The notes: a model not told the origin generated them from the letters alone. 64,000 bases of DNA from Rhodospirillales bacterium (GCA_038143065.1 JAYQLI010000012.1:79198-143197); one strand, 5' to 3'; counted from the stretch's first letter, positions 2,436 to 47,921 are shown. A program made the numbers and translations.

Positions 2436-2464
2436 TCTCATCAATTTCAATGAACTACGCTTGT

Positions 2465-5928: not shown

Positions 5929-5947
5929 AAATTATTTCCCTAGATGT

Positions 5948-7156: not shown

Positions 7157-7167
7157 ATGACTATCCT

Positions 7168-8400: not shown

Positions 8401-8481
8401 TTATTTTTGTTGATATGAAACAGATATCTTTATTAATATCGAATATTACGGACAAATTTTACGAAATTTTGGAATTAGATC

Positions 8482-9402
8482 ATGTCAAAATGGAATGATA
8501 CTTCCATCCCGAGGAGGTTCCTACCTCCGTTTGCGTGGCTCGCCTCGTTCGAAGCAGTTGCAAGGCGCGGATCGGTCACAACTGCGGCCCATGAACTAAA
8601 CCTTACGCAAGGCGCGGTCAGTCGCCATGTGCAAAAGCTGGAACAGCAAATCGGTGTGCAGTTGTTTGAACGGGATAAGCAGCGCCTGCATTTAACGGGG
8701 TCGGGTAAGACTTATGCAGAAGAGGTGCGCCAAGGCATAAGCCAAATAACCAACGCTGGCGTCAAATTGCATACTAACCCTAATGGGGGCGCGTTGAATT
8801 TAGCGGTGCTACCAGCATTCGGAACCCATTGGTTAGCGCCGCGTTTGGCGGATTTCATTGGCCAGTGTCCTGGCGTGACAGTCAATCTGTCAACGCGAAC
8901 CCGTCCTTTTGACTTTTCGAACGAGAATTTTCACGCGGCCATACATTTTGGATTGAACGACTGGCCGGACGTGAACAGCTTGTTTTTAATGGAAGAAGAA
9001 GTAGTTGCCATTGCAGCACCCCTGATCGTGAAGCCAAGCGCCGCAAACGATATGGACGAGATTCTGAAAATGCCACTGTTGCATCTGCAGACACGGCCGG
9101 CAGCGTGGAGCCGTTGGTTTGCGCAACAAGATTTAGACGTGAAAAATATAACCGGCATTCAGTTTGACCAGTTTGCGACGATGATACAAGCAGTAGTTTC
9201 TGGCCTTGGCGCGGCAATTGTGCCCAAATATCTTGTCGAGAACGAGCTAAAACAAGGGAGACTGGTTGGGCTGGGCGGTTCTGCGACATCTGTAATTGGA
9301 TCGTATTTTCTTGTATGGCCAGAACGCAGCGCACATCATCCCCCGGTTATGGCTTTCCAAAAGTGGATGAAATCCCTGGTAGGAGAAAACGCAATAATTT
9401 AA
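8482..9402 (+). CDS. LysR-family regulator (GcdR/GcvA-like), divergent from the gcdH operon
   Basis: N-terminal HTH (SVTTAAHELNLTQGAVSRHV), LPAFGTHWLAPRL; position typical of gcdR. Confidence 0.88.
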   Translation: MSKWNDTSIPRRFLPPFAWLASFEAVARRGSVTTAAHELNLTQGAVSRHVQKLEQQIGVQLFERDKQRLHLTGSGKTYAEEVRQGISQITNAGVKLHTNPNGGALNLAVLPAFGTHWLAPRLADFIGQCPGVTVNLSTRTRPFDFSNENFHAAIHFGLNDWPDVNSLFLMEEEVVAIAAPLIVKPSAANDMDEILKMPLLHLQTRPAAWSRWFAQQDLDVKNITGIQFDQFATMIQAVVSGLGAAIVPKYLVENELKQGRLVGLGGSATSVIGSYFLVWPERSAHHPPVMAFQKWMKSLVGENAII

Positions 9403-9911
9403 CCATCGGAGGTTGCCAGTTTTTTCTTAGATGGTTGTTGATTGGGACGCCAAGGTGCACGGCTACTGTGATCATTGGCAGAAATCAGTTTTTGGGTCAG
9501 CGTCATATACAAAGCGTATTCTTCATCTGTCAGAGGATCTATCAGCCGCCTTTGTGCTTTCACCATTCCAGGTTTCACTTTTTCGACAAGCTGGCGTCCC
9601 GCAAGGGTTATTTTGGCCAGCTTTGTGCGTTTGTCTGTCGGATTATCGGGCCGCTCCAGTAACTCGCGTTTGGCCAGACGTCTGATAACATCCGCAGCGG
9701 TGTTTCTGTCCACGCCAATCATTGAGGCAATGGTAACCTGATCGCGAACATTGCCATCTACAAGTACCGTAAGCACACCAAATTGGACAGGTGTTAGATC
9801 ATGCTTGCCGCATTCCTCCAGAAAAAGGGCTACGTGGATTTGGTGCAACCGCCGAATAAGGTGTCCCGGTCGATCTGTAAGGTTTTGAAAAATCGAATCA
9901 TCAACTGACAT
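9399..9911 (-). CDS. MarR-family transcriptional regulator
   Basis: PGHLIRRLHQI, LTPVQF, DKRTK wing motif; divergent from the hydantoinase/F420 operon. Confidence 0.9.
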   Translation of the reverse strand: MSVDDSIFQNLTDRPGHLIRRLHQIHVALFLEECGKHDLTPVQFGVLTVLVDGNVRDQVTIASMIGVDRNTAADVIRRLAKRELLERPDNPTDKRTKLAKITLAGRQLVEKVKPGMVKAQRRLIDPLTDEEYALYMTLTQKLISANDHSSRAPWRPNQQPSKKKLATSDG

Positions 9912-10059
9912 AGAGGCTCTGGTTTTAATTACTGCTTAATCGGTATTATATACCAAAGCACCGTGATTTAAACCAGCGCTTGAAAATGTAAGGTACAGCG
10001 GGCCGCACACAGGAAGAGCCACAAGGTGTGTGGATGACGGATAAAAAAATGTCTTTTAT

Positions 10060-10089
10060 TTGACACCGCCAATTTCCGTAGTACACTAC
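10060..10089 (+). promoter_or_regulatory. Sigma70-like promoter overlapped by palindromic operator
   Basis: TTGACA (10060-65) N16 TACACT (10082-87); GTAGTACACTAC (10078-89) covers the -10. Confidence 0.65.
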
Positions 10090-10124
10090 CTAATATTGTG
10101 TGTTCGAACTTTGGAGAAAACCGT

Positions 10125-12197
10125 ATGGGTTGGACAGTTGGTGTGGATGTCGGCGGGACATTTACTGATTTTTATGCAGCGAACGATCAAACCGGAGTGT
10201 TTCACGTTCACAAAACGTCGTCCACGCCTTCGAACCCAGCTGAAGCAATTCTAAATGGTCTTGACGTAATGTGCACCAAGTTCGATATCCCAGCGGATGA
10301 AATCGAACGGGTGTCCCATGGAACAACAGTTGGCACCAATGCGCTGATCCAGCGCACTGGAAGCCGTGTGGCCTTGGTAACAACCAAAGGGTTTTGCGAT
10401 CTGTTGGAAGTTGGTCGCCAAACGCGCCCTCATATGTATGACTTGCAACGGGATCACCCCGATCCGCTAGTGGATCGGGAATACCGCATTGAACTGAATG
10501 AACGTATCGGCGCAAAGGGTGAAATCGTTCGCGCTCCGAGTGCTGAGGATATCGATGCGGCTGTTGATGAAGTGATTTCTGTGGCTGCAGGCGCCTGCGC
10601 CATTGGGTTTGTTTTTTCGTTCAGAAATGACAGCCACGAACAAGCGTTTGCAAAGGCCTTGCGCAAACGTGCACCAGAGATTGCGGTTTCGGTGTCCTCC
10701 GAAGTACAGCCAGAATTTCGCGAATATGAACGACTATCCACAACAGTTCTCAACGCCTATTTGCAGCCTGTTATGTGGCACTATTTGGAAACCTTGGAAG
10801 CAGGGATCGCAGAACGTGCGCCCAATGCCAGCCTTGGGATTAACCAATCAAGTGGTGGATTGATGTCGGTTCAGCGGTCAAGGGAATTTCCAGTGCGGAC
10901 TGCTCTGTCTGGTCCTGCTGCAGGTGCAGTGGGCGCGGCCCATGCGGCACGTCAAACAGGACGCCGCAATATCATTACGCTCGATATGGGTGGCACCAGT
11001 GCCGATGTAGCGTTGATCCGTGACTACAGCGTTGATCTGGCGTTTGATCGTGATGTAGCTGGCTTTCCTATTCGGATGCCGTGCGTTGATGTGGAAACTG
11101 TTGGTGCGGGTGGTGGCTCGATTGCGTGGTTTGATCGTGATGGTCTGTTGAAGGTTGGTCCAAAATCCGCAGGGGCGTATCCCGGACCCGCGTGTTACGG
11201 CAATGGCGGCGACGAACCGACAACAACGGATGCGAACCTATTGCTAGGTCGTTTGTCTTCACGCGGTTTGCTGGATGGTGAAATGGGGCTTGATCCAGAG
11301 TTATCCCGTGCAGTTTTTAAGCCGATTGCGGATCAGTTGGGTTTTACCCTCGAAAAAACCGCACAGGGGATGCTGGGTATCGTAATTGCCAATATGGTGC
11401 GAACGATCCGCACCATTTCTGTTGAGCGTGGACATGATCCGCGTGACTTTGTGCTGATGCCATTTGGTGGCGCTGGGCCTCTGCACGCCCGTGATGTGGC
11501 TGTAAGCCTCGGCATGAAAGAAATGGTTGTGCCCGCCGCACCTGGTATCGTTTGTGCTCAGGGTCTGTTAGTGTCTGATTTGAAAGAAGATTTTGTTGTC
11601 AGCCGCCGTATTGCATTGGATGACACTGGGATCGGTGTTTTGGCGCAAACATTAGCAGACTTGCACACCAAAGCCGTGGATTGGTTTGCCAAGGAGAAAG
11701 CCCCTGAAACTGGTCGTAGTGTTCAATTGATTGTGGATGCGCGGTATGTGGGTCAAAACTTTGAACTTGCAGTGCCCGTGGCCGCAGGTGCGCAGTTATC
11801 TGTAAACGATGTACCAAATGCCCAAACGGTGACCAAAGCATTCTGTGATGCGCATGATCAAGCTTATGGCTACGCCAGCGAAACTGATCCCGTTGAAATA
11901 GTGAATGTTCGCTTGTCGGCACGTGCAAAGTTACACACATTCGAGGACAAACCAGCCGTAGATAGTGAAATAGATGAACCACAGGTGCGCGACACTCGTT
12001 TAGTTTATTATGATAGCGATGCTCCTGTTGAATCGCGTATTTACGACAGTGCGGAAATGCGCCCGGGCCAACGGGTCACCGGCCCAGCGGTTCTGGAGCA
12101 AATGGACACGACCACACCAGTTTACCCTGGTGATGTTGCTGAAATGACGCCCGATGGGCATTTGATTATCACCATAAAGCCGGAGGACCTTGCATGA
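10125..12197 (+). CDS. Hydantoinase/oxoprolinase family subunit A (ATP-binding; HyuA/OplA/CapA-like)
   Basis: GVDVGGTFTD, HGTTVGTNAL, SGPAAG, DMGGTSADV, GAGGGS; GGAGAA RBS before ATG 10125. Confidence 0.93.
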   Translation: MGWTVGVDVGGTFTDFYAANDQTGVFHVHKTSSTPSNPAEAILNGLDVMCTKFDIPADEIERVSHGTTVGTNALIQRTGSRVALVTTKGFCDLLEVGRQTRPHMYDLQRDHPDPLVDREYRIELNERIGAKGEIVRAPSAEDIDAAVDEVISVAAGACAIGFVFSFRNDSHEQAFAKALRKRAPEIAVSVSSEVQPEFREYERLSTTVLNAYLQPVMWHYLETLEAGIAERAPNASLGINQSSGGLMSVQRSREFPVRTALSGPAAGAVGAAHAARQTGRRNIITLDMGGTSADVALIRDYSVDLAFDRDVAGFPIRMPCVDVETVGAGGGSIAWFDRDGLLKVGPKSAGAYPGPACYGNGGDEPTTTDANLLLGRLSSRGLLDGEMGLDPELSRAVFKPIADQLGFTLEKTAQGMLGIVIANMVRTIRTISVERGHDPRDFVLMPFGGAGPLHARDVAVSLGMKEMVVPAAPGIVCAQGLLVSDLKEDFVVSRRIALDDTGIGVLAQTLADLHTKAVDWFAKEKAPETGRSVQLIVDARYVGQNFELAVPVAAGAQLSVNDVPNAQTVTKAFCDAHDQAYGYASETDPVEIVNVRLSARAKLHTFEDKPAVDSEIDEPQVRDTRLVYYDSDAPVESRIYDSAEMRPGQRVTGPAVLEQMDTTTPVYPGDVAEMTPDGHLIITIKPEDLA

Positions 12198-13889
12198 GCG
12201 AGCGCACAGTAGAACTCGATCCGATCCGTCTGGAAATTATCGCCAATGGTCTGCGCTCAATTGCGGATGAATGCTTTGTGGCGTTGATGCGGTCTTCGTA
12301 TTCGACCAACATCAAGGAGCGCAAAGACCATTCCATTGCGATTGTAGACAAAGTCGGCCGTTTGGTTGTTCAGGCGGAACTGACCCTGCCCATTCACATC
12401 GCCTCGATGGGGGGATTGATGAAATGTGTGTTGGAAAAATTTGGCGACGACATCAATGAAGGCGATATCTTTGTAGCCAACGATCCACACACGGCGGGCG
12501 GCACACACTTGCCTGATATTAACTACGCAATGCCGATCTTTATTGACGGCGAGATCGTAGCTTTTGTGTGCAACATCGCCCACCACGCCGATATCGGTGG
12601 TATGGTTCCGGGTTCTATGGCGGGTGGCATGTCGGAGATTTATCAGGAAGGGCTGCGTATTCCCGCTGTCCGCCTGTTTAACAAAGGTATTTTGCAACAA
12701 GATATCATGGATATCATGTTGTTGAACGTTCGAGTTCCCGAAGAACGCCAAAGGCGATCACAACGCACAAATTGCGTCGTGTCGATTGGGCGAACGGCGG
12801 TTCAAAGAAGTTGTCGGAGTTCATGGATTGTCAAGCGTTGTGACAGCGTTTGATGAAATTATCAGCCGTACAAACCAGCGGATGAAAGACACTATCGCGC
12901 AGATACCTGATGGAGTTTATGAATTCAAAGACTACATGGATTCAGATGGTCTCTCGACCTACGATATTCCGATTTGCCTGAAACTGACGGTTAAAGGCGA
13001 ACGTATCCATCTGGATTTTGCGGGCACCAGCCCACAGGTTAGAGGTAACATCAACACGACATTAAATGCAGTACAGGCCAGTGTGAGTTATGCGTTGATC
13101 GGGGCATTAGACAGCGAAATGCCATCCAACCAAGGTGTGTTGGACGCGGTTGATATTTCATGTGGATCTGGCACGATTTTGAACTGTGTCTTCCCAGCCC
13201 CCGTAGCGGCGCGTGCGCATGCCTGCCAACGGGTGATTGATATTGTTCTTGGCGCCTTGTCCAAAGCGATCCCAGACAAGGTGATTGCAGCGGCGAACGG
13301 AGCCAATACAACGGCTGTTTTTTCGGGCGTCGATCCTCGCACTGGTAAACCGTATCTGTACTTTGAAACCATCGGAGGTGGTATGGGTGCACGGGCGACC
13401 AAAGACGGCAAAGATGGCGTTCAAGTTGGCATAACCAACACATCAAACCTGCCAGTGGAATCCATTGAACAAGAATACCCGCTGCGGGTCGAAGAATACG
13501 GCTTTGTCGAAAACTCTGGCGGCGCGGGTGAATTTCGTGGGGGCATGGGATTGCGCCGCGTGTTAACACCTGTGGACCATGAATGTGTGTTCAACGGCGC
13601 GGGCGAACGGTTCCGGTATCAACCTTGGGGGTTGTTTGGCGGCGAAGCAGGTGCGTCTGGCCAATTCCAGATCGAAGACGCTGATGGCATACGCCGTTTG
13701 GACGACAAACCGAATGAGGTTGAAGTCAAACTGGGCACGCGCATAACAGTGGAAACACCGGGCGCGGGTGGCTATGGCAAACCTGCTAAGCGGAATGCAG
13801 AAGCTGTAAAACGAGACCAAGAGAGCGGAAAATATTCGCCAGAGTTCATAAAAGAAAACTATGCAGAAACCAACTTCGGGGAGCAATAA
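12194..13889 (+). CDS. Hydantoinase/oxoprolinase family subunit B (frameshift near 12750)
   Basis: NDPHTAGGTHLPD, HHADIGG, EIYQEGL, GGAGEFRGG, TPGAGGYG; ORFs 12194..12853 and 12786..13889. Confidence 0.9.
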
Positions 13890-13890
13890 C

Positions 13891-14928
13891 ATGCGTGTCT
13901 ACTCTATGGTACGGCCCAAGAAACTGTCGGAAATGCCAGAAGCAATGGCACGGGCAGAACGGCTTGGCTATGACGGGACAACTTTGCTGGAACTGACTGT
14001 TCCACCAACCTTGTCTGCTGCGGCTGGAGCGATGCTAACCAAAGATATCAAGATGATGTCTGGCGTTTTTGTTGCCTTTCCCCGTAGCCCGATGGCAACC
14101 GCCTATGATGCGTGGTCGTTGAATGAATTGTCGGGTGGGCGTTTCCAGCTTGGCCTTGGCAGCCAGATCAAGGCCCACATTACGCGCCGCTTTGGTATGG
14201 AGTATTTGCCGGTGATCCGTCGGATGAAAGACTACATCAACGCTTTGAACGCAATTTGGGATTGTTGGCAGGATGGAACTAAACTGGATTATGATGGCGT
14301 GTATTACAAACACAACCTCATGATACCGTATTACAACCCTGGCCCATTAACGACCGGCAAGCCGGAAATCCATTTGGCCGCGATCAACAAATTAATGTGT
14401 CGGTTGTGTGGTGAGGTTGCAAACGGCCATTTACCCGGTGATCCGATCACATGGAAATGGCACGAGGAAGTCATGTTGCCCAACCTTGAGATAGGTTTGG
14501 AACGTTCCGGTCGCACGCTCAAAGACCTCGATCTGGGTGGCTATGGCTTCATCGGCTGTGCGACAAATACCGAGGGGCTGGATCGCGTTGCCAATGGTTT
14601 GAAAGAGCGGGTTGCATTATATGCGTCGACGCCAGAATATGCAGAAATGTTGTCAATGTTTGGTTGGTCGGTGAGCCAAGAAGATTTCGCCAATCTGTCC
14701 CGTCAAGGTAAATGGGCCGAAATGGGAAATCTGGTAACTGATGATATGCTTGAAGCCTATTCGGTGATTACAACACCGGAAGACCTGCCTTCTGCTTTGG
14801 CCAAAAGGTATGGTGGAAAAGTTGATCGCATCCCAATTGATGAAACATGGTTTGATGGTTTGACTGATGATCAAGTTGAAACACTGGTAACTGAAATTAA
14901 GAAAATACCCAGCCATGCTGACGGTTGA
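13891..14928 (+). CDS. LLM-class (luciferase-like) oxidoreductase, probably F420-dependent (TIGR03617/MSMEG_2256-like)
   Basis: AFPRSPM..AY.AW.L..LSGGRF.LGLGSQIKAHI.RRFG and YASTP.Y motifs; in an operon with F420 genes. Confidence 0.82.
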   Translation: MRVYSMVRPKKLSEMPEAMARAERLGYDGTTLLELTVPPTLSAAAGAMLTKDIKMMSGVFVAFPRSPMATAYDAWSLNELSGGRFQLGLGSQIKAHITRRFGMEYLPVIRRMKDYINALNAIWDCWQDGTKLDYDGVYYKHNLMIPYYNPGPLTTGKPEIHLAAINKLMCRLCGEVANGHLPGDPITWKWHEEVMLPNLEIGLERSGRTLKDLDLGGYGFIGCATNTEGLDRVANGLKERVALYASTPEYAEMLSMFGWSVSQEDFANLSRQGKWAEMGNLVTDDMLEAYSVITTPEDLPSALAKRYGGKVDRIPIDETWFDGLTDDQVETLVTEIKKIPSHADG

Positions 14929-16426
14929 ACCCTTTCTTCAAAACGCCGATACCAGAGACTTTGCAGCTGAAGAATGGGATCGACTGTGCGCCCGTGATCC
15001 GTCAGCTTTGGCGGTTGCCGAAATTGACCGTGAAATCACTGTTGGTGAACTGATCAAACAGGCTCGTGTGCGGGCGGGACAGTTTATTGCACAAGGCGCG
15101 GAGCCAGGATCTCGGGTGATTGTTGCGCGCCCGAACGTGATCGAATTTGTGGTGGATTATCTCGCGGTTCGTCTTTGTGGTGCTGTATTGGTCAACCTTC
15201 CTTGGGCCGCAGGGACCAGCATCACGGAATTGGCAGAAATTCTGGACGCCAAAGTGGTTGTGCTGACCGAACATCTTGTTGGCGACAATCCTTTGTTTGA
15301 TCAACTGGGAGATCGTCGTTTTCGTGAAGATGAAACCACCGACATCGGACCAGAACGCCCTGTTGCACGGAGCGGCGAAGAATTGGCTTGGTTGGCCTGC
15401 ACGTCTGGCACCACAGGTACGCCCAAGGCGGCGATGCATACGGGCGCCACGTGGCAGCGCCAAACCGAGGTATTTGCCCAACATTTTAGGCTGACCAAAG
15501 ACGACCCGATTTTGGTGTCTGCGCCTGTCGGTCACGCAGTTGCATTGTTGTTCGGTGTGCGGTTCTCGCTGTTGCTGGATTCACCGATGATTTTGGTGTC
15601 TCGTTGGAAAATCGACACGGCGGTGGATTTGATTGAGCGTTATAATTGTACCTTCACAGTTGCGCCGACGCCGTTTCTGATTGATATGGTTTCCTTTGCT
15701 GAACAAAACGGCAACGAGCGAGTGAAATCGCTGAAATTCTTTCCATCTGCTGGTGCGCCTGTGCCACGCACATTGGTGCGTCGTGGCTTGGATGCTTTGC
15801 CCGGGTGTCAGGTTTGGTCCTATTTTGGAACGTCGGAAGCGGGCGCGGTAACGGCCTGCCCGTTGGACGCTGATTTGGAGAATCGTCTAGAGACAGATGG
15901 AATAGCGATGCCCGGCACAACAACCCGTGTCGTTGATAATGAGCTGCAAGTGCACTGCCCTGAACAAATGATGACAGGGTATTGGAGCGGCGATCCGAAT
16001 GGGCGGCTGCATGATGATGGCTGGTATCAAACTGGCGATGCTTGCGAACAGCGTGAAGATGGCTATATCAAGATGGTAGGACGTGCGCAGGATATCATTC
16101 TGCGTGGCGGAGAGAACATCTCACCGTTAGAGATCGAAAACACGTTGCTGAGCCATACTAGCGTCGAAGATGTTGCCATTATTGGCTATCCTGATGAGCG
16201 TCTGGGCTCTCGATTGGCGGCAGTAGTTGTTCAAACGGCTGATGTGACGCTGGACGATTTGCGTGATCATTGTAAAGGTGTTGGGCTTGATAAGGCAAAG
16301 TGGCCGGAATTCATGACATGCATCGACAAAATTCCACTGTCCGCAATTGGCAAAGTCCAACGCGGCGTTTTGGAAGATTACGTTTGGGATGAAGTCAAGA
16401 AAACCGCAAAGAAAGGTGTTTCCTAA
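14915..16426 (+). CDS. AMP-forming acyl-CoA synthetase
   Basis: TSGTTGTPK, YFGTSE, TGD, RGGENISPLEIE, GKVQR. Confidence 0.9.
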   Translation: MLTVEPFLQNADTRDFAAEEWDRLCARDPSALAVAEIDREITVGELIKQARVRAGQFIAQGAEPGSRVIVARPNVIEFVVDYLAVRLCGAVLVNLPWAAGTSITELAEILDAKVVVLTEHLVGDNPLFDQLGDRRFREDETTDIGPERPVARSGEELAWLACTSGTTGTPKAAMHTGATWQRQTEVFAQHFRLTKDDPILVSAPVGHAVALLFGVRFSLLLDSPMILVSRWKIDTAVDLIERYNCTFTVAPTPFLIDMVSFAEQNGNERVKSLKFFPSAGAPVPRTLVRRGLDALPGCQVWSYFGTSEAGAVTACPLDADLENRLETDGIAMPGTTTRVVDNELQVHCPEQMMTGYWSGDPNGRLHDDGWYQTGDACEQREDGYIKMVGRAQDIILRGGENISPLEIENTLLSHTSVEDVAIIGYPDERLGSRLAAVVVQTADVTLDDLRDHCKGVGLDKAKWPEFMTCIDKIPLSAIGKVQRGVLEDYVWDEVKKTAKKGVS

Positions 16427-16427
16427 T

Positions 16428-16868
16428 ATGGGAATGCGTCACAACAATCTGACGATTGATGACATACAGGAACGGATCAACCGCTCCAAATACCATCAAT
16501 TATTCCAACCAAAAGTGCTGGAACTGGACAACGAAATAGAAAGGCTAAAGCTGCGGGTATCGATGTGTGATGAGTTTGAACGCCAGCCAGAAACAAATCA
16601 GTGGCATGGTGGCGTAATTGGATCCTTGGTGGATATCACTGGATGCTATGCGTTGATGCTGGTCGCTGGTGGCCCGATGCTTACGCTGAATTTCAGCACG
16701 GATTTCCTGCGCCTTGCAGTGTCAGACCATCTGTATGCCATTGCAACCGTGCGGCGCATTGGGAGCACAGTTGGATTTGTAGATGTTGAAATCGAAGATG
16801 ATGTAGGGGTGACAGTTGTAACGGGTCGTGCCTGTTATGCCATCCGCGCAAACAAAACAGAGGTATAA
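16428..16868 (+). CDS. PaaI-family (hotdog fold) thioesterase
   Basis: HGGVIGSLVD motif, T..F..DFLR, ~145 aa. Confidence 0.85.
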   Translation: MGMRHNNLTIDDIQERINRSKYHQLFQPKVLELDNEIERLKLRVSMCDEFERQPETNQWHGGVIGSLVDITGCYALMLVAGGPMLTLNFSTDFLRLAVSDHLYAIATVRRIGSTVGFVDVEIEDDVGVTVVTGRACYAIRANKTEV

Positions 16869-16885
16869 GCCTGAGAGGTGAAGAC

Positions 16886-17569: not shown

Positions 17570-17587
17570 GTCAACGAAGGAATTCGC

Positions 17588-18367: not shown

Positions 18368-19311
18368 GCGGAGCCGTTGTAACCTTGTCTGGTGGCGTCG
18401 GCGGTGCCAAACTGGTGCTGGGCATGTCCTATGTTGTTGCGGGCAGAGAACTGGTCGTTGTTTGCAATACTGGCGATGATTTCACGCATCTCGGTCTGCG
18501 AGTATGCCCCGATATCGATTCCGTTCTATATGCGCTGTCTGGCCTGTCTGATCAGACGCGGGGTGGGGAAGAAAAAGACGAATCTTGGACCTTTATGTCC
18601 GCGATGAAGGATTTGCAGGGACCAGATTGGTTCAATCTGGGTGACAGAGATTTGGCCACGCATGTTTTGCGCACAGATATGTTGGCGCAGAATAAAACGA
18701 TGACGGAAGTGACCGGTAATTTGGCGCTGCGGATGGGTATCGAGGCGGATATTCTGCCGATGAGCGATGATCCCGTTGCGACTATTGTTCATACAGACGC
18801 AGGTGATCTGGCATTTCAGCATTATTTTGTGCGCGAGCAATGCGGACCGCGTGTTGCTGGGTTCTCTTTTGATGGAACCGAAAATGCGGAACCACAGCCG
18901 CAGATATTGGACGTGCTGCAATCTGACCCAGAATCTATTATCATCGCGCCGTCTAACCCTTACGTTAGTGTTGATCCCATTTTGCAGCTGAAAGGAATGA
19001 AGACGGCGCTGAAAAATGCAGGCGCTCCCATTGTGGCCGTCTCGCCGATTATTGGTGGGAAAGCCATCAAAGGGCCAGCTGCCAAGATGATGCAAGAGTT
19101 GGGCAAAGACGTTTCGGTGCTTAGCATTGCAGCTCACTATCAAGATTTGATCGACGGTCTGGTGATTGATGTTAAGGACGCAGAATTGGCACCGCAAATT
19201 CGCGAGATGGGGATAAAAACCCTCGTCACACAATCAGTCATGACTGATCTGAACAGTCGCATTGAATTGGCACAAGCGACGCTGGATTTCGCACGGGACT
19301 GTGGGTCATGA
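18364..19311 (+). CDS. cofD: 2-phospho-L-lactate/PEP transferase (CofD/FbiA)
   Basis: LSGGVGGAK, NTGDDF, CPDID, LGDRD, FQHYFV, PSNPYVS, KGPAAK. Confidence 0.93.
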   Translation: MSGAVVTLSGGVGGAKLVLGMSYVVAGRELVVVCNTGDDFTHLGLRVCPDIDSVLYALSGLSDQTRGGEEKDESWTFMSAMKDLQGPDWFNLGDRDLATHVLRTDMLAQNKTMTEVTGNLALRMGIEADILPMSDDPVATIVHTDAGDLAFQHYFVREQCGPRVAGFSFDGTENAEPQPQILDVLQSDPESIIIAPSNPYVSVDPILQLKGMKTALKNAGAPIVAVSPIIGGKAIKGPAAKMMQELGKDVSVLSIAAHYQDLIDGLVIDVKDAELAPQIREMGIKTLVTQSVMTDLNSRIELAQATLDFARDCGS

Positions 19312-19976
19312 CCGATGTCATAATTCCAGTCAAAGATTTGTCACGAGCCAAAGGACGGTTGCAAAACATCTTGACCCCCGCCGAGCGTGCGGGTCTTGTT
19401 TTGGCAATGTTACACGATCTGCTAACGACGCTTAATCAGTGTGCTTTGGGAGATATCTGGCTTGTCGCATGTGATGAAGCTGTGTTTGATCTCGGGGCAG
19501 AATTCGGGGTCCATGATATCCGTGAACACGTTTCAAAGGGTTACAATCACGGCGTTTCTGCGGGATTGCAGTCCGTTAACGCAAAGAATTCAGTTGTTAT
19601 TCTTCCCGCTGATCTGCCATTGGCAAAGCCCCACGACATTGCGCAGTTGATTCAAGCAGGAGCTGGTATCAATCCAACGGTTGCGATTGTGCCTGATCGT
19701 CACAATCGTGGGACAAATGGGTTGTTTCTATCTGCTCCTGATTTGATCACACCTGACTTCGGTGAAAGCAGTCTTTTCAATCACAAGGTTGCCGCCGCAC
19801 AACTCAGTATTTCCGCACATGTCGTTCCTATCGAAGCAATGGCGATGGATATTGATAGCCCAGAGGATCTTTTTGCGGTGGCTCAATCGACGACATCCAA
19901 TTCCACTACGAATTTTCTGGCATCCATTGCGTTTGGACAAGATGCGTGGACTTCACATAAATGGGAGGTCGCATGA
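19308..19976 (+). CDS. cofC: 2-phospho-L-lactate/PEP guanylyltransferase (CofC/FbiD)
   Basis: IPVK...AKGRL, ADLP, GTNGL, FGESS, DIDSPEDL. Confidence 0.9.
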   Translation: MTDVIIPVKDLSRAKGRLQNILTPAERAGLVLAMLHDLLTTLNQCALGDIWLVACDEAVFDLGAEFGVHDIREHVSKGYNHGVSAGLQSVNAKNSVVILPADLPLAKPHDIAQLIQAGAGINPTVAIVPDRHNRGTNGLFLSAPDLITPDFGESSLFNHKVAAAQLSISAHVVPIEAMAMDIDSPEDLFAVAQSTTSNSTTNFLASIAFGQDAWTSHKWEVA

Positions 19977-22315
19977 CCTACGCTTCAAGCCAATCCACAC
20001 TGCCCCATTACGTATCCGCTGACGAGGCAAAAGTATTTCTGAATAGGCCGATCGATACTCTGATGGCATGTGCAACCCAAATACGAGACGAGGGGCATGG
20101 GCGGCTGGTCAGCTATTCGCGCAAAGTGTTCATTCCTTTGACCAAATTGTGCCGTGATGTTTGTCATTATTGCACTTTTGCCAAAACGCCCAAAAAGATT
20201 GATGCGCCATTTCTAAGCCCTGAACAAGTGCTTGAGATCGCGCGCGCTGGTCAGGTTGCTGGATGTAAAGAAGCCTTGTTCACGCTCGGCGACAAACCGG
20301 AACTGCGATATTCCGTTGCGCTTGAAGCTTTGGCGGAAATGGGCTATGAAACCGACGCTGGATTACCTGCATGCAATGGCGGAATTGGTGATCAACGAAA
20401 CCGGTCTTTTGCCCCATCTTAATCCCGGCGTGATGACCCGCAATGAACTGGCGAAGTTGCGCGAAGTTTCAGTTTCTATGGGAATTATGCTGGAGTCGAC
20501 CTCGTTGCGGTTAATGGAGCAGGGAGGGTGCCACTTTGGCTCACCTGACAAAGATCCTGCTGTTCGATTGAAACGATCCGTAATGCGGGCGAACTGAAAA
20601 TCCCGTTCACCAGCGGCATTTTGATTGGAATCGGAGAAACGCGTGCGGATAGAATTGAAAGCCTTCTGGCCTTGCGCGATTTGCACCAAGAATTTGGCCA
20701 CATTCAGGAAATAATTATCCAGAATTTCCGCGCCAAGCCAAATACGAAAATGGCCGATGTGCCCGAACCTGATTTGACTGACTTGCAGTGGACCATCGCG
20801 ATTGCGCGGGTTATTTTTGGGGCTGAGATGTCAATACAAGCGCCCCCAAATTTGTCTGATGGTGGTGCAGGGTTGATCGCTGCGGGGATAAACGATTGGG
20901 GTGGTGTTTCACCTGTTACGCCGGATCATGTGAACCCAGAGGCCCCTTGGCCTCTTTTGGATCAACTTGCTGATGATACCGCAGGTTGTGGAAAGATATT
21001 GGTAGAACGGTTGGGGATTTACCCGAACTATGCGCATCAAAATACGGTTTGGCTGGATAAAAAGCTGCGTAAACCAGTGCTTGATCTGATTGATGCCGAT
21101 GGATTGGCACGCACGGACAGTTGGGTTCCAGGTGATGCATCCCAAGATTTACCCAAGCTGCCGAAATCGCCTGCGGTCATTCCAGACATGGGTCTGTCAC
21201 GCGTTTTGGTGAAGGCAAATAAGGGTGAGAACCTGTCCGAAGCAGATATCTGCCGCCTTTTGACCGCACGGGATTGCGAAGTTCATGAGGTCATGCAAGC
21301 CGCAGATGACGTTCGCAAACGGGTGAGTGGCGAAACGGTGAGTTATGTTGTAACACGCAACATCAACTATACCAATATCTGTTATTTTAAATGCAAATTC
21401 TGCGCCTTTTCCAAAGGCAAGATGAGCGATAACCTGCGCGGTCGCCCCTACAATTTGGGCGCTGATGTTGTGGTTGAGCGTGCGCGCGAAGCATGGGATC
21501 GCGGCGCGGTTGAGGTTTGTTTACAGGGCGGTATTCATCCCGAATATACAGGCCAAACCTATCTTGATATTCTGAGTGCAATCAAATCTGAGCTGCCTGA
21601 TATGCACGTCCATGCGTTTTCCCCGCTAGAGGTGCACCAAGGGGCCGCTACGTTGGGTGTTTCAGTCTATGATTTTATTGGGCAGTTAATTGACGAAGGA
21701 TTGGGCAGCTTGCCTGGCACTGCGGCAGAAATTTTGGACGATGAAGTGCGACGTGATTTGTGCCACGACAAGATCAATACAGCCGAATGGTTCGAAGTGG
21801 TGAACGCGGCACATAAACAGGGGCTAAAAACTACTGCAACAATCATGTTTGGCCATATTGACCGACCCGTGCATTGGGCGCGGCATATGCTGCGTCTGCG
21901 GGATCAACAGACTAAAACTGGTGGATTTACCGAATTAGTACCCTTGCCGTTTGTTCATATGGAATCACCGATTTACTTGAAGGGTGGGTCGCGTAAAGGG
22001 CCAACTTGGCGGGAATCCGTGTTGGTTCATTCCGTTGCGCGTTTGGCGTTGAACCCGCTGATCCCAAACATTCAGGCCTCTTGGGTCAAGCTCGGCCCGG
22101 AGGGCGTCGCGGCTTGTTTGTCCGCCGGAGTGAACGACATTGGCGGCACTTTGATGGATGAGACCATCACACGCTCTGCTGGGGCGGCGCATGGGCAGGA
22201 AATGACACCTTCCGCGATGGAAGAGTTGTTGTTGCGCCAAGGCCGCCCATCGCGGCAACGCACGACACTATATCAAGATGCGGCAAAGGATCGGCGTTTA
22301 GCTTCATTTGCTTAG
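19973..22315 (+). CDS. fbiC: Bifunctional Fo synthase (CofG-CofH fusion), frameshifts near 20355 and 20575
   Basis: Two radical SAM CxxxCxxC motifs (CRDVCHYC; CYFKCKFC), [25 protein letters not shown]; ORF 20621..22315 runs from the CofG half into the CofH half. Confidence 0.9.
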
Positions 22316-22340
22316 CCTTTGCAGTTCTATGGTTGGATTG

Positions 22341-23654
22341 TTAGCCGACCTGATTAGGCAGCCACGTGGCAATAGCTGGAAAAGCGACAATCAGCGCTAT
22401 ACCCAACAAGAACAGCGCGACAAACGGCCAGGTTGCGCGGTAAACTTGACTGATGCTCATGTCTGGCACGACGGCCTTGAACGCGAACAACGTATATCCG
22501 AATGGCGGAGTGATCGCGCCAAGGGTAATGTTGACGAGGAACAGCAGCCAGAACCAAACTGGATCAAACTCCAGCGCAGTGACGACGGGTTGGTAGATCG
22601 GGATCGTCAGTAAGATCACTGCGATCGTGTCGATGAACATACACAGAATAAACGGGACCGCTAGCATGACAAGCAACATCGCAATCGGAGAGTATCCAAG
22701 ATTGGCAACTAGATTAACCAGTTCACCGGTCGCGCCGGTGAAAGCGAGCAGCTGTGTGAACATCTTAGACATCGCCATAATGGCTAAGATCATTGCAGAA
22801 ACTTTTATCGCGGCCATTAGCGAGTCCAAGATCATCTGTAATGAAAGCTTCCGGTAGATAGCTGCGGTTAACAACGATCCAACTACGCCGGTTGCGGCCG
22901 ATTCAGATGGAGTTGCGATACCCAACATAATAAAGCCCATAACCGAAAAGATCACGATCAAGAAGGGCATGGTGCGGACAATAGCTATGAGTTTCTCCAT
23001 CGGTGTGACTTCGGCCCGCTCGCCTGCAACATTGCCCGGAGCAAGTGAGGGGTTCATGCCGATCCGTACAAAGACGTAAACCAAGAAAATCCCACCGATA
23101 AAGAGACCAGGGATAACACCTGCAATCAGCAGTTTTGCAATCGACACGTCAGCTATAGAGCCAACAATAATCGCCAGTAGACTAGGTGGGATAATCGGAG
23201 CAAGGCTCGCACCGCCGATAATCAGGCCCGCCGCGATACTACGATCGTAACCGCGATCGTGCATCCCCGGCATAATGGCCCGCCCAAGCATCGCAGCCAC
23301 GGCCATGGCAACACCGGAGAGCGCGCCAAAGACAGCGGATAAGACGACGACCAGAACGTATTGGCGGCCCCGTACTTTGCCCACCAGTTTGTCAATTGAA
23401 TCGAACAAAACGTCCATTGTTCCAGATCGAAACAGCAATTCACCCATTAGGATGAACAAGGGTATTGAGGCCAAAGAAGTAGTTGTGGCCGTGTCGAGCA
23501 CCGAATTTGCAAACAATGGAAATCCGGCGGGGCCAATGACGAAATACACGCCCAGCAAAATCGCTGCCAGAAAGGCAAGAAAGATTGGAGCGCCCGACAA
23601 AAACAAAACGAAGAGGATCGCCATCCCCAAAATAAGCGTTGTGTACCATTCCAT
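22341..23654 (-). CDS. TRAP transporter large permease (DctM)
   Basis: IPLFILMG, IIPPS, ATPSES, ITPPFG; many TM helices. Confidence 0.92.
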   Translation of the reverse strand: MEWYTTLILGMAILFVLFLSGAPIFLAFLAAILLGVYFVIGPAGFPLFANSVLDTATTTSLASIPLFILMGELLFRSGTMDVLFDSIDKLVGKVRGRQYVLVVVLSAVFGALSGVAMAVAAMLGRAIMPGMHDRGYDRSIAAGLIIGGASLAPIIPPSLLAIIVGSIADVSIAKLLIAGVIPGLFIGGIFLVYVFVRIGMNPSLAPGNVAGERAEVTPMEKLIAIVRTMPFLIVIFSVMGFIMLGIATPSESAATGVVGSLLTAAIYRKLSLQMILDSLMAAIKVSAMILAIMAMSKMFTQLLAFTGATGELVNLVANLGYSPIAMLLVMLAVPFILCMFIDTIAVILLTIPIYQPVVTALEFDPVWFWLLFLVNITLGAITPPFGYTLFAFKAVVPDMSISQVYRATWPFVALFLLGIALIVAFPAIATWLPNQVG

Positions 23655-24175
23655 TAATCTGCTTGCTCGCTTGCATCAACACCGCTAATGCGGTGTTTAG
23701 GGGATAAATAAAGCAGCAGGTAAATTGCGCTTAAACCTAGCCCGAAAGTGATAAATGAAGACACCCACCATTGCGGAATTGGCACAATGGCAAGGGTATG
23801 AATCCCACGGGTGAATTGCCGGATGTTTTCCTGCAAACTAACCCAAGCAGCGAAAGAGAGGCATAAGAAACCTAAGATGCTGATGATGACATGCAAAATG
23901 TTGGCGATGGGTTTTGGAGCGATGTCGACCAAAATCGTAACGGCAACATGGGCTTTATCTTTGGTGACGTGGGGCAGCGCAAGAAATGCTGATGCGCAAA
24001 GGGCATATGCCACAAAATCGCTGGCCCATGCTGTTGGTGATTGAAAAACATACCGCGAAACGACTTCGTAGATGTAGGAACAGACAATCATGGCAAGACC
24101 GGTTGCAGCGAGGACTGATGCCGCCAGCGTCAGGAAGTCAACCACCTTTTTAACATTTGTGACAATCACGGTCAT
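23654..24175 (-). CDS. TRAP transporter small permease (DctQ)
   Basis: EVVSRYVF..PTAW, HVAV; about 4 TM; between dctP and dctM. Confidence 0.9.
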   Translation of the reverse strand: MTVIVTNVKKVVDFLTLAASVLAATGLAMIVCSYIYEVVSRYVFQSPTAWASDFVAYALCASAFLALPHVTKDKAHVAVTILVDIAPKPIANILHVIISILGFLCLSFAAWVSLQENIRQFTRGIHTLAIVPIPQWWVSSFITFGLGLSAIYLLLYLSPKHRISGVDASEQAD

Positions 24176-24211
24176 TTGGAGCCCTATTTACGTTTGTTTT
24201 TGACTAAAAAC

Positions 24212-24246
24212 AAAAAAGTGCCCGGCCCCTATCAGGAACCAGGCAC
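24212..24246 (-). terminator. Hairpin plus U-tract after dctP
   Basis: Minus strand GTGCCTGGTTCC-loop-GGGCCGGGCAC-TTTTTT. Confidence 0.6.
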
Positions 24247-24260
24247 AAGATCACTATAAT

Positions 24261-25235
24261 TTACATGCCTTTTGAAGCAACAAAGTCCCGGAAGGCTTCG
24301 CCTGTTGCGCCTGATGCTTCAACGGCCACTTCCATTGCACGATCTGCGAACAATGCATTTGCTTCTTCCAGTGTGTACCCAATGGAAGTTTTCTTTGCAC
24401 CAGCCGCCATCATCGCTGCGTTTTCTTGTTCCAGAAGCGCATTGAAGATATCGATCGAGTTTTGTTCCAGCTTGTGACCCGCTTCGAGCATTGCTGTCTG
24501 CTGGGCTTCATTCAAGCTGTTCCATTTGTCTAAGTTCATCATGATCAAATAGGAAACTGTGCCAAACGCTGGCTCTGCCAGATAAGGTGTAACTTCGTGG
24601 AATTTATAGCCTACAGCGCCAACAGAAGGCCACACCAGCCCGTCAATTACGCCTTTTTCAGCAGCTGAGTAAAGTTCGCCAAACGGGATAACAACCGCAG
24701 TACCACCCAAAGATCCAACAATTTTATTGTAGGATGGCAGGGCACGAATTTTTGTACCGTTAAGTTTATTGGTTTCATCCATTGGCTCTTTTAGGAAGAA
24801 ACGGAACCCGGTTGTTGCTGTTGGAATTGACAGAACTTTCAGGTTTTGCGTTTCCTGGTAGTGCGCATCCACCCAATCCCAAATACCAGACGTACGGCGT
24901 TTTTCGATGTCACCGTTTACGGCGTCAATCGCAGCACCGACGCCTGTGTCACCAGTGTGGTACAAGCCGTGCGTGTAGATGATGTCAAAGACACCAGCCG
25001 AAACTGGTTGAATTTGTTTACCACCTGGCACAACTTCTGGTCCGCTTGGCGTAATATTGATGTCGCCGCCAGAGATTTCTTTGACTAGATCAATGTAACC
25101 GTAAGCCATATTGGCTGTGCCAGAGTGATTGCCACCCCAAGCTGTCAACATTTTCATGTCTTCAGCAAAACTTGCTGACGCGGACAAAGCTAAGCCCAAG
25201 GTGGCCGCAACCAGTGATTTTGATATATTGTTCAT
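24261..25235 (-). CDS. TRAP transporter solute-binding protein (DctP)
   Basis: Signal peptide, G.KIR, LGG..V, ELYSA.EKGVIDG. Confidence 0.9.
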   Translation of the reverse strand: MNNISKSLVAATLGLALSASASFAEDMKMLTAWGGNHSGTANMAYGYIDLVKEISGGDINITPSGPEVVPGGKQIQPVSAGVFDIIYTHGLYHTGDTGVGAAIDAVNGDIEKRRTSGIWDWVDAHYQETQNLKVLSIPTATTGFRFFLKEPMDETNKLNGTKIRALPSYNKIVGSLGGTAVVIPFGELYSAAEKGVIDGLVWPSVGAVGYKFHEVTPYLAEPAFGTVSYLIMMNLDKWNSLNEAQQTAMLEAGHKLEQNSIDIFNALLEQENAAMMAAGAKKTSIGYTLEEANALFADRAMEVAVEASGATGEAFRDFVASKGM

Positions 25236-25602
25236 TTAGCAGTCTCCCATTTTTTCTATCGCCGAACCGAGGGGTCTACCCTCTGAAACAAGTGACTTCA
25301 GCGGTGTTGGTGTTCAAATTATGTAGTATACGTCTTATTATGTCGAATCATATTTTTAAACCTAATTAAACTACTGTAATGATGTGTTTTTTTTGGATGC
25401 AGAAGTAAGTTCCGTAGCAAAAACGGCAAATTCCTAGTACGAAACATGTAAATTTTATTGATGACAAGACGCCGGTAAGCCTACAGATAAAGCAATAGGA
25501 AAATGCCAGATCGTAACGCCTAAATTGACGCGGATTTTGTTATTAAGTTGTTAGTAGGGGTTACGGTTTTTGTAGACTTTTGAGTCATATGGCTGATAAC
25601 TA

Positions 25603-25618
25603 ACGTAGTGTACTACGT
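25603..25618. promoter_or_regulatory. Palindromic operator upstream of nitroreductase
   Basis: ACGTAGTGTACTACGT; its reverse complement shares CGTAGTACACTAC with 10077-10089. Confidence 0.6.
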
Positions 25619-25656
25619 GTTTAATGTTGACGCCAAATTTGGATTGGAAATGCACT

Positions 25657-26331
25657 ATGAGTGATGAATTTAAAATACTGTCTGGCATCATGGACAGCCG
25701 TTATAGCTGCCGAGCATATCTTGATAGAGAGGTGAGTGATGCCGACATCAACCAAATTGTCAAAACCGCATCAAAGGTTCCGACGTGGTGCAATGCTCAG
25801 CCATGGAAAATTTTGGTTACCAAAGGTGATGAAACAAAATCTTTTGCAAAAACGATGGTAGACGCCGCCAACGCTGGCCCAATGGAACCCGATTTTGATT
25901 GGCCCAAGCAATATACGGGTGATTATCAAGATCGCAGACGTGTGTGCGGGTATCAGCTGTATGAATCCTTGGGTATTGCGCGAGATGATCGGGAAAAGCG
26001 CGCAGAACAAATGATGCAAAATTTCAAATTTTTTGGTGCTCCACATGTTGCGATTGTAACAACAGAAGCTGATCTAGGCCACTATGGTGCAATGGATTGT
26101 GGTGGGTTCATAGCATTGTTCACATTGGCCGCCCGCGCGTTAGGGGTAGCATCAGTTGTTCAAGCTTCTGTAACGGGTTATGCACCAATCATTCGCAGTC
26201 ATTTTGGAATTTCAGAAAACAGGCTTATTCAAACAGCAATTTCATTTGGATATGAAAACAAAGACCATCCCGCTAACAGTTTTCGCACACAGCGAGCAAT
26301 AATCGAAGATGTTTTGAACATTGTCTCTTAA
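25657..26331 (+). CDS. Nitroreductase family protein
   Basis: SRYSCRAY, PTWCNAQPW, NFKFFGAPH, DCGGF, ISFGY. Confidence 0.88.
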   Translation: MSDEFKILSGIMDSRYSCRAYLDREVSDADINQIVKTASKVPTWCNAQPWKILVTKGDETKSFAKTMVDAANAGPMEPDFDWPKQYTGDYQDRRRVCGYQLYESLGIARDDREKRAEQMMQNFKFFGAPHVAIVTTEADLGHYGAMDCGGFIALFTLAARALGVASVVQASVTGYAPIIRSHFGISENRLIQTAISFGYENKDHPANSFRTQRAIIEDVLNIVS

Positions 26332-26345
26332 TGAAATGAGCTAAT

Positions 26346-26390
26346 GCACACGGACTCGAACTCCCTGACCCACTGATTACAAATCAGTGC
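26346..26390 (-). pseudogene. Degenerate tRNA-Thr(UGU) 3' fragment, probable att scar
   Basis: Minus strand CTGATTTGTAATCAG anticodon arm (TGT) then GTTCGAGTCC T-loop; 5' half and CCA missing. Confidence 0.65.
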
Positions 26391-26558
26391 TTCTGTTTCT
26401 TTGTTATTCATCTGCCTAATTCCATTCTAACTATGCCTCTCTAAAGAAAGCACAATACCATTGTTGTTTTGATCTTTGCCTCGCGATCATCAAATTCACG
26501 CTGAGACAAAGCGATTATGTCTGCTACTCGCTCTTTAGATAGCGATACGGGCGCTGTT

Positions 26559-32620: not shown

Positions 32621-32623
32621 ATC

Positions 32624-47913: not shown

Positions 47914-47921
47914 CGGACGGA

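Follow-up and report, generated by a model that had tools for sequence, protein, structure and literature searches.

What would a proteobacterium do with cofactor F420? The question is raised by a 64,000-nucleotide stretch of DNA attributed to a Rhodospirillales bacterium (GCA_038143065.1, JAYQLI010000012.1:79198-143197; hereafter the window, with positions counted from its first letter). Positions 9399-26331 carry genes for F420 synthesis and recycling beside a luciferase-like oxidoreductase (LLM), further catabolic enzymes, a TRAP importer and a MarR-type regulator. We propose that they probably constitute a mobile, MarR-controlled cassette that combines the TRAP importer and a catabolic route with F420 recycling by NpdG and the full synthesis of F420. 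Each part is of a known kind: the gene order fno-cofE-cofD-cofC-fbiC, LLMs that depend on F420, HyuAB enzymes, TRAP importers and repressors of the MarR type. The novelty is that they are joined, in a conserved way, into a single regulated and transferable unit, and that this unit makes up all the F420 machinery found in its carriers.

An earlier annotation made from the DNA alone (the sequence-only reading) had listed the genes of 9399-26331, and all of them were found, in the order and on the strands it gave, when open reading frames (ORFs) were compared with Pfam and NCBIfam. Its central claim, a single coupled operon hyuA-hyuB-LLM-CoA ligase-PaaI-npdG-cofE-cofD-cofC-fbiC, was borne out by the ORFs, the family matches and the gene junctions, and the matches agree with the divergent MarR gene and the TRAP importer that it placed beside the operon. 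The features are as follows.

9399-9911, minus strand: MarR-family regulator, divergent from the operon (Pfam MarR, 1.3e-09)
10060-10089, plus strand: promoter-like site, TTGACA, 16 nt, TACACT, with the -10 box inside the palindrome at 10078-10089
10125-12197 (ORF opens at 10098), plus strand: hyuA, A subunit of the ATP-dependent hydantoinase/oxoprolinase family (Pfam Hydantoinase_A, 4e-95)
12194-13889, in two frames (12194-12853 and 12786-13889), plus strand: hyuB, the B subunit (Pfam Hydantoinase_B)
13891-14928 (ORF from 13861), plus strand: LLM1, luciferase-like oxidoreductase of the TIGR03617 family
14915-16426, plus strand: adenylate-forming acyl/aryl-CoA ligase (Pfam AMP-binding)
16428-16868 (ORF from 16347), plus strand: hotdog-fold PaaI-type thioesterase (Pfam 4HBT; TIGR00369, 48.8 against a cut-off of 36.6)
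16886-17569, plus strand: npdG/fno, NADPH-dependent F420 reductase (TIGR01915, 204.6 against 149.8)
17588-18367, plus strand: cofE, stand-alone F420-0:glutamate ligase of 259 aa (TIGR01916, 273.4 against 180.65)
18364-19311, plus strand: cofD (TIGR01819, 291.5 against 257.45)
19308-19976, plus strand: cofC (TIGR03552, 152.4 against 105)
19973-22315, plus strand: fbiC, fused CofG-CofH FO synthase (NF006687 on all three pieces)
22341-23654, minus strand: dctM, TRAP large permease, convergent with fbiC across a 25-nt spacer (TIGR00786, 279.5 against 268.45)
23654-24175, minus strand: dctQ, TRAP small permease (Pfam DctQ, 2.1e-23)
24218-24246, minus strand: terminator-like hairpin between dctP and dctQ, a 13-bp stem followed by a T run (consensus scan only)
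24261-25235, minus strand: dctP, TRAP solute-binding protein (Pfam DctP; NF037995, 71.2 against 50)
25318-25346, minus strand: promoter-like site of dctP, TCGACA, 17 nt, CATAAT, overlapping the operator-like site at 25323-25334
25605-25616, no strand: second exact copy of the operator, immediately 5' of the nitroreductase gene (pattern search)
25624-26331, plus strand: NfnB-like nitroreductase (Pfam Nitroreductase)
26361, no strand: position beyond which three other DNA assemblies no longer match the window (ends of alignments in X1, X5 and X6)

Because the ten operon genes are joined by overlaps or by gaps of at most 18 nt, we regard them as one translationally coupled unit. ATGA overlaps link hyuA to hyuB, cofE to cofD, cofD to cofC and cofC to fbiC; the LLM and ligase genes overlap by 14 nt; single nucleotides separate hyuB from the LLM gene and the ligase gene from the hotdog gene; and npdG is flanked by gaps of 17 and 18 nt. 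Translation probably begins at 10125 for hyuA (ribosome-binding site GGAG, N-terminus MGWTVGVDVGGTFTD), 13891 for the LLM gene, 16428 for the hotdog gene and 19973 for fbiC. The adjacent DctP, DctQ and DctM make up a TRAP transporter.

How widespread is this arrangement? A search of the protein collection gave 1395 homologues of the LLM at E<=1e-20, the best 120 of which are 57-89% identical. With an LLM alignment as query, species-representative genomes yielded 80 loci, 47 at 57-98% identity and the rest at 35-42%. When related loci were compared with the window proteins by tblastn, hyuB adjoined the LLM gene in 39 of the 47; the other 8 have a different context. The complete hyuA-to-fbiC set, in the order of the window, is present in 22 of the 39 loci, and several others are cut by contig ends; dctM occurs in 30 and lies next to fbiC in most. 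The gene order proposed from the DNA alone thus recurs, and its repetition in dozens of genomes puts it far outside what chance would give. In the flanks of 40 loci, the only additional conserved genes are a second LLM and divergent copies of cofC. The flanks otherwise vary by lineage, with the TRAP genes upstream in some loci and downstream in others.

Carriers belong to both the Alphaproteobacteria (Paracoccaceae, Hoeflea and other Rhizobiaceae, Hyphomicrobiales, Geminicoccaceae, Tepidamorphus, Kordiimonadaceae and Magnetovibrio) and the Gammaproteobacteria (Granulosicoccaceae, Candidatus Njordibacter, with a complete genome, Oceanospirillaceae, Acidiferrobacteraceae and Bugula-associated Chromatiales). 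These names are database labels, and both the labels and the binning of metagenome-assembled genomes (MAGs) are caveats to them. Two carriers are in culture, Hoeflea sp. TYP-13 (L021) and Hoeflea poritis E7-10 (L025). Near-identical DNA was detected in 14 DNA runs of 11 studies and is widespread in coastal metagenomes; four runs (X21-X24) contain next to no window words and are uninformative.

We computed a maximum-likelihood tree of HyuA, LLM and ligase from 34 rows, comprising 33 loci and the window; L018, L020, L031, L033, L035, L039 and L053 were left out for want of full-length matches. Well-supported branches force the Gammaproteobacteria into at least two places, the Rhizobiaceae fall into four separate clades, and the window and L017 (labelled Rhodospirillaceae) are sister to a Paracoccaceae MAG. 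Because the tree conflicts with taxonomy and the cassette recurs in both classes, the module appears to be portable, as the sequence-only reading had supposed, and its distribution fits repeated horizontal transfer.

A sister LLM group (L053 and L057-L063, 57-60% identity) was observed in Rhodospirillales-type genomes, beside a distant ligase (27-29%). Seven of its eight members have no hyuAB beside the LLM gene, L059 has hyuB on the opposite strand, and cofE is present in both genomes tested.

Does the cassette supply all of the F420 machinery of its hosts? In all 16 carrier genomes analyzed there is exactly one cofE, inside the cluster, and exactly one LLM above the TIGR03617 cut-off, with a single further match at E<=1e-10 across all 16. 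Fourteen carriers also have exactly one LLM above the TIGR03619 cut-off, in the cluster, and the window-like G001 and G003 have none. FDOR-A (PF04075) was found in none of the 16, the positive control being a match on contig C35 of the bin that contains the window. FDOR-B (TIGR03618) likewise exceeded its cut-off in none of them, giving weak matches only, of a kind also seen in E. coli. Over a broader set, cofE was found in 25 of the 26 cassette genomes searched, including some whose cluster does not have it: it lies elsewhere in the genomes of L042, L048, L055, L026 and L051, and the genome of L036 has two copies. The co-occurrence of cofE and LLM across carriers therefore gives good comparative support to the view that the LLMs depend on F420. 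The same comparison gives good support to the view that most carriers have no further recognisable enzyme using F420; LLMs below the cut-offs, encoded elsewhere in some of these genomes, could still use it.

The LLM of the window (LLM1), which had been put forward for a check against the TIGR03617 HMM (hidden Markov model), passed it with 325.7 bits (NCBIfam cut-off, 278.15). Its orthologues score 322-350 bits in 16 of 16 carriers, and homologues are 339-345 aa long. At E<=1e-5 it has six relatives of solved structure, every one an F420-dependent Mer. Clustering of unassigned ORFs revealed a second LLM (LLM2) of about 310 aa, encoded between the ligase and hotdog genes in other loci. It belongs to another F420-type subfamily, TIGR03619 (177.6 and 180.8 bits against a cut-off of 166.9), and is present in 31 of the 34 loci in which this position can be assessed, five loci ending too early. 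Its gene is absent from the window, L017, L019 and L055. By this count two LLMs are the rule for the cassette, and the single-LLM state characterizes a derived sub-lineage. The earlier statement that F420 serves one LLM enzyme thus holds for the sub-lineage of the window but not for the usual cassette.

In which direction would the hydride flow? F420 might act as the oxidant, with the LLM an F420-reducing dehydrogenase of the Fgd/Adf kind and NpdG handing the hydride to NADP+. Fno/NpdG is reversible and LLM-class enzymes working in both directions are known, as passages of a review describe (PMC8498797), and nothing in the sequence fixes the direction. The same passages have the F420-reducing direction of Fno dominating in bacteria (PMC8498797), however, the closest solved relatives of LLM1 are reductases (Mer), and a low-potential cofactor would bring little gain for an oxidation that NAD(P)+ could do. 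We consider the oxidant role unlikely and favour reduction of the substrate by F420H2.

Is the synthesis of the cofactor complete? NpdG, CofE, CofD and CofC of the window each score above their NCBIfam equivalog cut-offs, and with FbiC, judged on the intact copy of L017, all five members of the fno-cofE-cofD-cofC-fbiC set are present. CofE stands alone, with no nitroreductase domain, and the neighbouring nitroreductase is NfnB-like, so that the FbiB/FbiE route for dehydro-F420 is not represented. The nitroreductase was considered as the missing dehydro-F420 reductase (FbiE) and rejected: it has no NCBIfam match, its nearest structures are 3gr3 and NfnB (2wzv) rather than FbiB, and it adjoins the cluster only in L018 and L019. 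We also rejected a CofC of the type that makes 3PG-F420, the form based on 3-phosphoglycerate, since a Gly aligns with the required Ser (S162 of the M. rhizoxinica enzyme, 7p97); in pairwise alignments this Gly also matches a Gly of M. tuberculosis FbiD. Passages of PMC8764529 describe the Ser at S162 of the Mycetohabitans-type (M. rhizoxinica) CofC as needed for the use of 3-phosphoglycerate. They also report that CofC of P. denitrificans and O. carboxidovorans favours 2-phospholactate in vitro, and that such assays are unable to tell the substrate in vivo.

As it stands, the window sequence carries three frame breaks, one in hyuB and two in fbiC. The two pieces of hyuB match positions 1-177 and 189-519 of the Hydantoinase_B profile (Pfam), and fbiC is split into ORFs at 19961-20422, 20232-20597 and 20621-22315. 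To check them, we aligned Logan contigs from three DNA runs and one RNA run of four studies, about 99% alike, to 9300-26400. Base 12750 (hyuB) is absent from all four of these runs, one base at 20352 or 20354 (fbiC) is absent from all three runs that cover it, and an extra G follows 20569 (fbiC) in all four; each difference abolishes one frame break. In L017, a MAG contig with 98% protein identity, HyuB is one ORF of 564 aa and FbiC one of 784 aa, which scores 1141.7 bits against the CofGH equivalog cut-off of 1018. In the assembly of the window itself, rpoB is in two frames (G000:C35:2660058-2664196, near 2662007-2662016), pointing to indel errors, and many further window genes are also split. 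Because the genes are intact in the other runs and in L017, and because rpoB and other genes are split as well, the frame breaks are most likely consensus indel errors of this assembly; hyuB and fbiC are intact in the population.

The breaks and the many other split genes might instead suggest a decaying remnant, in which hyuB and fbiC are truly frameshifted, F420 is not produced and the operon has lost its function. All three breaks are missing from the four closely similar runs and from L017, however, the shifts are single-base, and the rpoB break points to consensus errors in the same assembly, which leaves such decay extremely improbable. Real frameshifts in fbiC had been named beforehand as an observation that would count against the F420 interpretation; given the contigs of the other runs, the rpoB break and the intact genes of L017, we rejected real pseudogenes.

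Two side observations concern the same kind of difference. Window 53098-63099 holds molybdo-hydroxylase fragments (MoCoBD, FAD_binding_5, Fer2_2), a truncated AMP-ligase, a split Peripla_BP_6 gene and ABC ATPase genes, with frame breaks like those of hyuB and fbiC. At 10097, in a GT repeat of the noncoding hyuA leader, two bases are absent from three DNA assemblies; the difference sits between the operator and the ribosome-binding site and may be strain variation or an assembly error.

Are the cofactor genes placed under the same control as the catabolic genes? The MarR gene adjoins hyuA, divergently, in 32 of the 39 related loci. The best promoter-like site of the region (TTGACA at 10060, 16 nt, TACACT) has its -10 box within the palindrome GTAGTACACTAC (10078-10089), a putative operator: an inverted repeat in the divergent promoter region of a regulator with a MarR winged-helix domain. 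An exact copy of the palindrome lies at 25605-25616, and one with two mismatches at 25323-25334, inside the promoter-like site of dctP. On both strands of the window the operator has 8 matches where 1.7 are expected, and three of its four distinct sites fall in the two promoter regions of the cluster. Across loci, the 260 bp upstream of hyuA contain GTAGT-NN-ACTAC in 28 of 35 when one mismatch is allowed and exactly in 16 of 35. Only 8 matches lie in the remaining 657 kb, and two of these are upstream of dctP, an exact operator about 100 bp upstream in L026 and a one-mismatch site in L055. The layout TTGAC...GTAGTAYACTAC is shared by the 8 loci inspected, alpha- and gammaproteobacterial alike.

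Visual inspection and a pattern search revealed the operator; an inverted-repeat tool run on the MarR-hyuA spacer returned only an AT palindrome, and no Rfam family was found in window 9000-34000. The natural reading of the arrangement is that a MarR repressor would occlude the -10 box and be released by the substrate. Together, the gene junctions and the promoter-like site support the view that npdG, the cof genes and fbiC are coupled in translation to the catabolic genes, all of them under one promoter/operator of the MarR type.

What compound might be degraded? The nearest solved structures to HyuA are the N-methylhydantoinase 7hk5 (2e-146) and 6yra (2e-113), followed at a distance by acetophenone carboxylase (1.5e-75) and acetone carboxylase (6e-62). 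Because HyuA is closest to ATP-dependent lactam and hydantoin hydrolases and not to carboxylases, we infer that HyuAB is a ring-opening enzyme for a cyclic amide. Caprolactamase (CapAB) itself was rejected as an identity. HyuA scores 551 bits and the intact L017 HyuB 304.5 bits on the caprolactamase models (NF050156/NF050157), both far under the equivalog cut-off of 1000, so that the Pfam matches place them in the wider hydantoinase/oxoprolinase family only and their substrate is probably not that of caprolactamase.

The family also includes ATP-dependent carboxylases, and the ApcC, ApcA and ApcD models and acetone carboxylase structures do match, so one could imagine HyuAB carboxylating, in the manner of the acetone and acetophenone enzymes, a ketone made or used by the LLM. 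We judge this very unlikely: the hydantoinase matches are far stronger than the carboxylase ones, the caprolactamase models outscore the carboxylase models (551 against 275.6 bits), and the cluster has no gene for a further carboxylase subunit.

For the remaining enzymes the likeness is broader. The ligase is a generic acyl/aryl-CoA ligase, whose nearest structures at E ~1e-37 are malonyl-CoA synthetase, FadD5, feruloyl-CoA ligase and 4-chlorobenzoate-CoA ligase. For the hotdog protein we found no close characterised relative. The solved relatives of DctP are all distant, 4mnc being the nearest, and a literature search on the ligand of 4mnc turned up only unrelated papers. In the sub-lineage of the window, upstream neighbours of the cluster include genes for an aminotransferase, an acyl-CoA dehydrogenase and the E1 component of a 2-oxoacid dehydrogenase; they are not conserved as neighbours and would fit an amino acid as the ring-opened product.

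Taken together, these genes suggest the following course. MarR would sit on the palindrome over the operon's -10 box and on the similar sites before dctP and the nitroreductase gene, and the imported compound or its CoA ester would free it. The ten operon genes (10125-22315) would then be made as one transcript, the cofactor thus being produced together with the enzyme that needs it. An organic acid would enter through the TRAP system and be activated with CoA by the ligase, and the LLM or LLMs would reduce the substrate, perhaps in the form of its CoA thioester, by hydride transfer from F420H2. NpdG/Fno would recharge F420 with NADPH, and HyuAB would use ATP to open a ring of the lactam or hydantoin type. 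From the sequences we infer this course as a whole, including catabolism as such and the single organic acid of the sequence-only reading: MarR as a repressor, induction, F420 as the cofactor of the LLM, reduction rather than oxidation, the succession of reactions and the kind of substrate.

A role in biosynthesis or detoxification, that is, F420-dependent tailoring of a secreted metabolite or reduction of a toxic compound, is highly improbable. F420-dependent LLMs do tailor antibiotics in Actinobacteria, as passages of PMC8498797 describe, and MarR proteins often control detoxification, the nitroreductase here having the same operator. TRAP systems import, however, and the conserved core has no scaffold genes for a nonribosomal peptide synthetase, a polyketide synthase or the precursor of a ribosomally synthesized and post-translationally modified peptide; an ATP-dependent ring opener and a CoA ligase suit breakdown, and the nitroreductase is not conserved.

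Returning to catabolism, one may go further and suppose that in marine carriers F420 is a single-purpose cofactor, induced with the regulon for the cassette's LLMs and transferred as part of the whole package, the substrate being an abundant marine ring carboxylate. The ring compound would then be a lactam, a hydantoin or an N-heterocycle that ordinary nicotinamide and flavin enzymes cannot reduce. We offer this extension tentatively, as possible rather than probable. If it is true, a bacterium that never had F420 would gain low-potential hydride chemistry in one transfer.

Several observations weigh against the proposed cassette or narrow it. Its gene content is not invariant: L042, L048 and L055 have no cof genes beside the catabolic genes, L026, L030 and L051 are without cofE and cofD, L036 is without cofD and L027 without cofC, so that the cof block is separable from the catabolic genes as judged from these loci. 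The one cassette genome in which cofE was not found is the L030 MAG. Use of F420 by the LLM would follow from HMM membership and co-occurrence. As for the cofactor, a reductase of the FbiB C-terminal or FbiE type (TIGR03553) scores above its cut-off in none of the 16 carriers, and we know of no source of 2-phospholactate, from which the lactyl part of F420 would come. Searches of solved structures gave no close characterised relative for the ligase or DctP. The plasmid collection, searched for a possible transfer vehicle, holds no orthologue and only Rhodococcus paralogues at 38-39%. In its favour, though as a weak hint only, contigs of one metatranscriptome span all 30 bins of the region; RNA contigs are no proof of transcription.

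A further objection comes from the bin in which the window was deposited. The window is part of contig C12 (143 kb) in a bin of 52 contigs, whose main contig, C35, measures 2.86 Mb and has its own fbiC (intact, in an 849-aa frame), cofE, FDOR-A and 43 LLM matches, 4 of them above the TIGR03617 cut-off; examples of these genes lie at 1735747-1738119, 2582754-2583500 and 1893754-1894149. If C12 truly came from the cell of C35, the cassette would not be its sole source of F420.

Several lines point away from C35. The MAG of L017, whose cluster is 98% identical to that on C12, has an rpoB with only about 72% DNA identity to that of C35. No LLM orthologue was found in nine genomes of the same genus (33-40% paralogues only), which also show no synteny with window 1-9400, and none at 1e-110 in 400 genomes of the class. 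Four-letter-word composition sets C35 apart from the small contigs, and long matches number 239 among the small contigs and 4 between them and C35. Because of these differences, C12 is most likely mis-binned accessory DNA of a proteobacterium, judging by sequence comparison, and the other F420 system, that of C35, is probably from a different organism. No lpxC was found in the whole bin, with control matches in four Gram-negative genomes, and C35 has the appearance of a monoderm rich in F420 genes, possibly a member of the Chloroflexota. A piece of C35 matches genomes of its genus; other parts of C12 and C33 gave no match to G001, G004 and G006 (G003 in part) except for one piece at 66%. That the regulon is self-contained, as had been proposed, could accordingly not have been read from this bin, where C35 has F420 genes of its own; in the 16 carriers the cassette is the only F420 machinery found. 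As a side observation, a repeat of about 170 bp at window 2462-2634 has copies of 75-92% identity on C12 and at least 10 other small contigs, and none on C35.

Where does the cassette end? The nitroreductase, which had been counted as part of the module, is present at 25624-26331 with an operator of its own, but orthologues adjoin the cluster only in close relatives (G003/L019, 70%, and L018, 66%). By this comparison it is a lineage-specific member of the regulon, outside the conserved cassette. Pieces of X1, X5 and X6 stop at 26361, with loose ends there in X1 and X6. The assemblies thus diverge 30 nt past the nitroreductase stop, and low-GC strain-specific DNA follows. Beyond this border lie a phage-type integrase (31508-32179) and a DUF772 transposase (33357-33803). 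A hairpin at 26371-26389 resembles part of a tRNA; ARAGORN found no tRNA at the border. The DNA at 26361-33900 is probably an inserted island.

Further along the window, 33876-42871 holds a second, unrelated cluster for a ring compound (GC 0.54-0.57), with S-Me-THD-like and hydantoinase-A-like genes, parts of an ABC transporter, an Asp/Glu/hydantoin racemase and a MalT/LuxR-type regulator. A phage portal, a large terminase and an HNH endonuclease at 43440-49214 mark a prophage or its remnant.

How does the cassette compare with what has been described? The statement of the sequence-only reading that no characterised pathway has this gene set was upheld by a full-text literature search, which returned no paper describing the set, the figures and supplements of Ney et al. 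2017, which possibly show gene neighbourhoods, lying outside its coverage. According to passages of PMC8498797, Ney et al. 2017 demonstrated F420 in Paracoccus denitrificans and Oligotropha carboxidovorans. Proteobacterial F420 operons likewise have a fused fbiC, a stand-alone cofE, cofC, cofD and fno in one block. Unlike in those operons, the block here is the tail of a conserved catabolic operon with a regulator, an operator and an importer. Passages of a 2021 review (PMC8498797) state that no F420-dependent enzyme of Proteobacteria had been studied and list the reason for having F420 as open, and a Pseudovibrio genomics paper only speculates on its role. The cassette ties a full F420 route to defined enzymes, to a regulator with a recognisable operator and to an importer, and because it occurs in cultured strains, the question of how Proteobacteria use F420 is directly testable. 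As a natural, compact and co-regulated unit for the production and use of F420 from Gram-negative bacteria, it is also of interest for biocatalysis.

The closest likeness of logic is perhaps to the npd cluster for picrate and dinitrophenol in Rhodococcus and Nocardioides, in which an NADPH:F420 reductase is likewise paired with enzymes that transfer hydride from F420H2. The npdG of that cluster is the namesake of TIGR01915, and the cluster is reportedly the subject of work by Ebert in 1999 (cited in PMC5765558) and Heiss in 2002 (cited in PMC8498797). Its hosts, Actinobacteria, make F420 anyway, with the genes elsewhere. Unlike the cassette, the npd cluster has no HyuAB, CoA ligase, thioesterase or TRAP system.

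Other systems share single parts. The N-methylhydantoinase 7hk5, the 6yra enzyme and CapA/CapB belong to the same two-subunit HyuA/HyuB family and are its best matches, but none of these systems is linked to F420, as the cassette is. The 4-chlorobenzoate pathway runs from a CoA ligase through an enzyme acting on the thioester to a hotdog thioesterase. The cassette has a ligase of the same class (4-chlorobenzoate-CoA ligase structures match at ~1e-36), encoded next to a 4HBT-type hotdog thioesterase, and by this analogy CoA may be a transient activating handle in the cassette's route. The pathways differ in that the sequence relation is distant and the cassette has no dehalogenase. A parallel for the cofactor itself is found in Xanthobacter Py2, where genes for coenzyme M biosynthesis are linked to alkene and epoxide catabolism on a megaplasmid. 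There, too, a proteobacterium makes a cofactor of methanogens for one pathway, as the cassette would do. The cofactor and the chemistry are different, however, and the linkage is that of a plasmid rather than of one operon under one operator.

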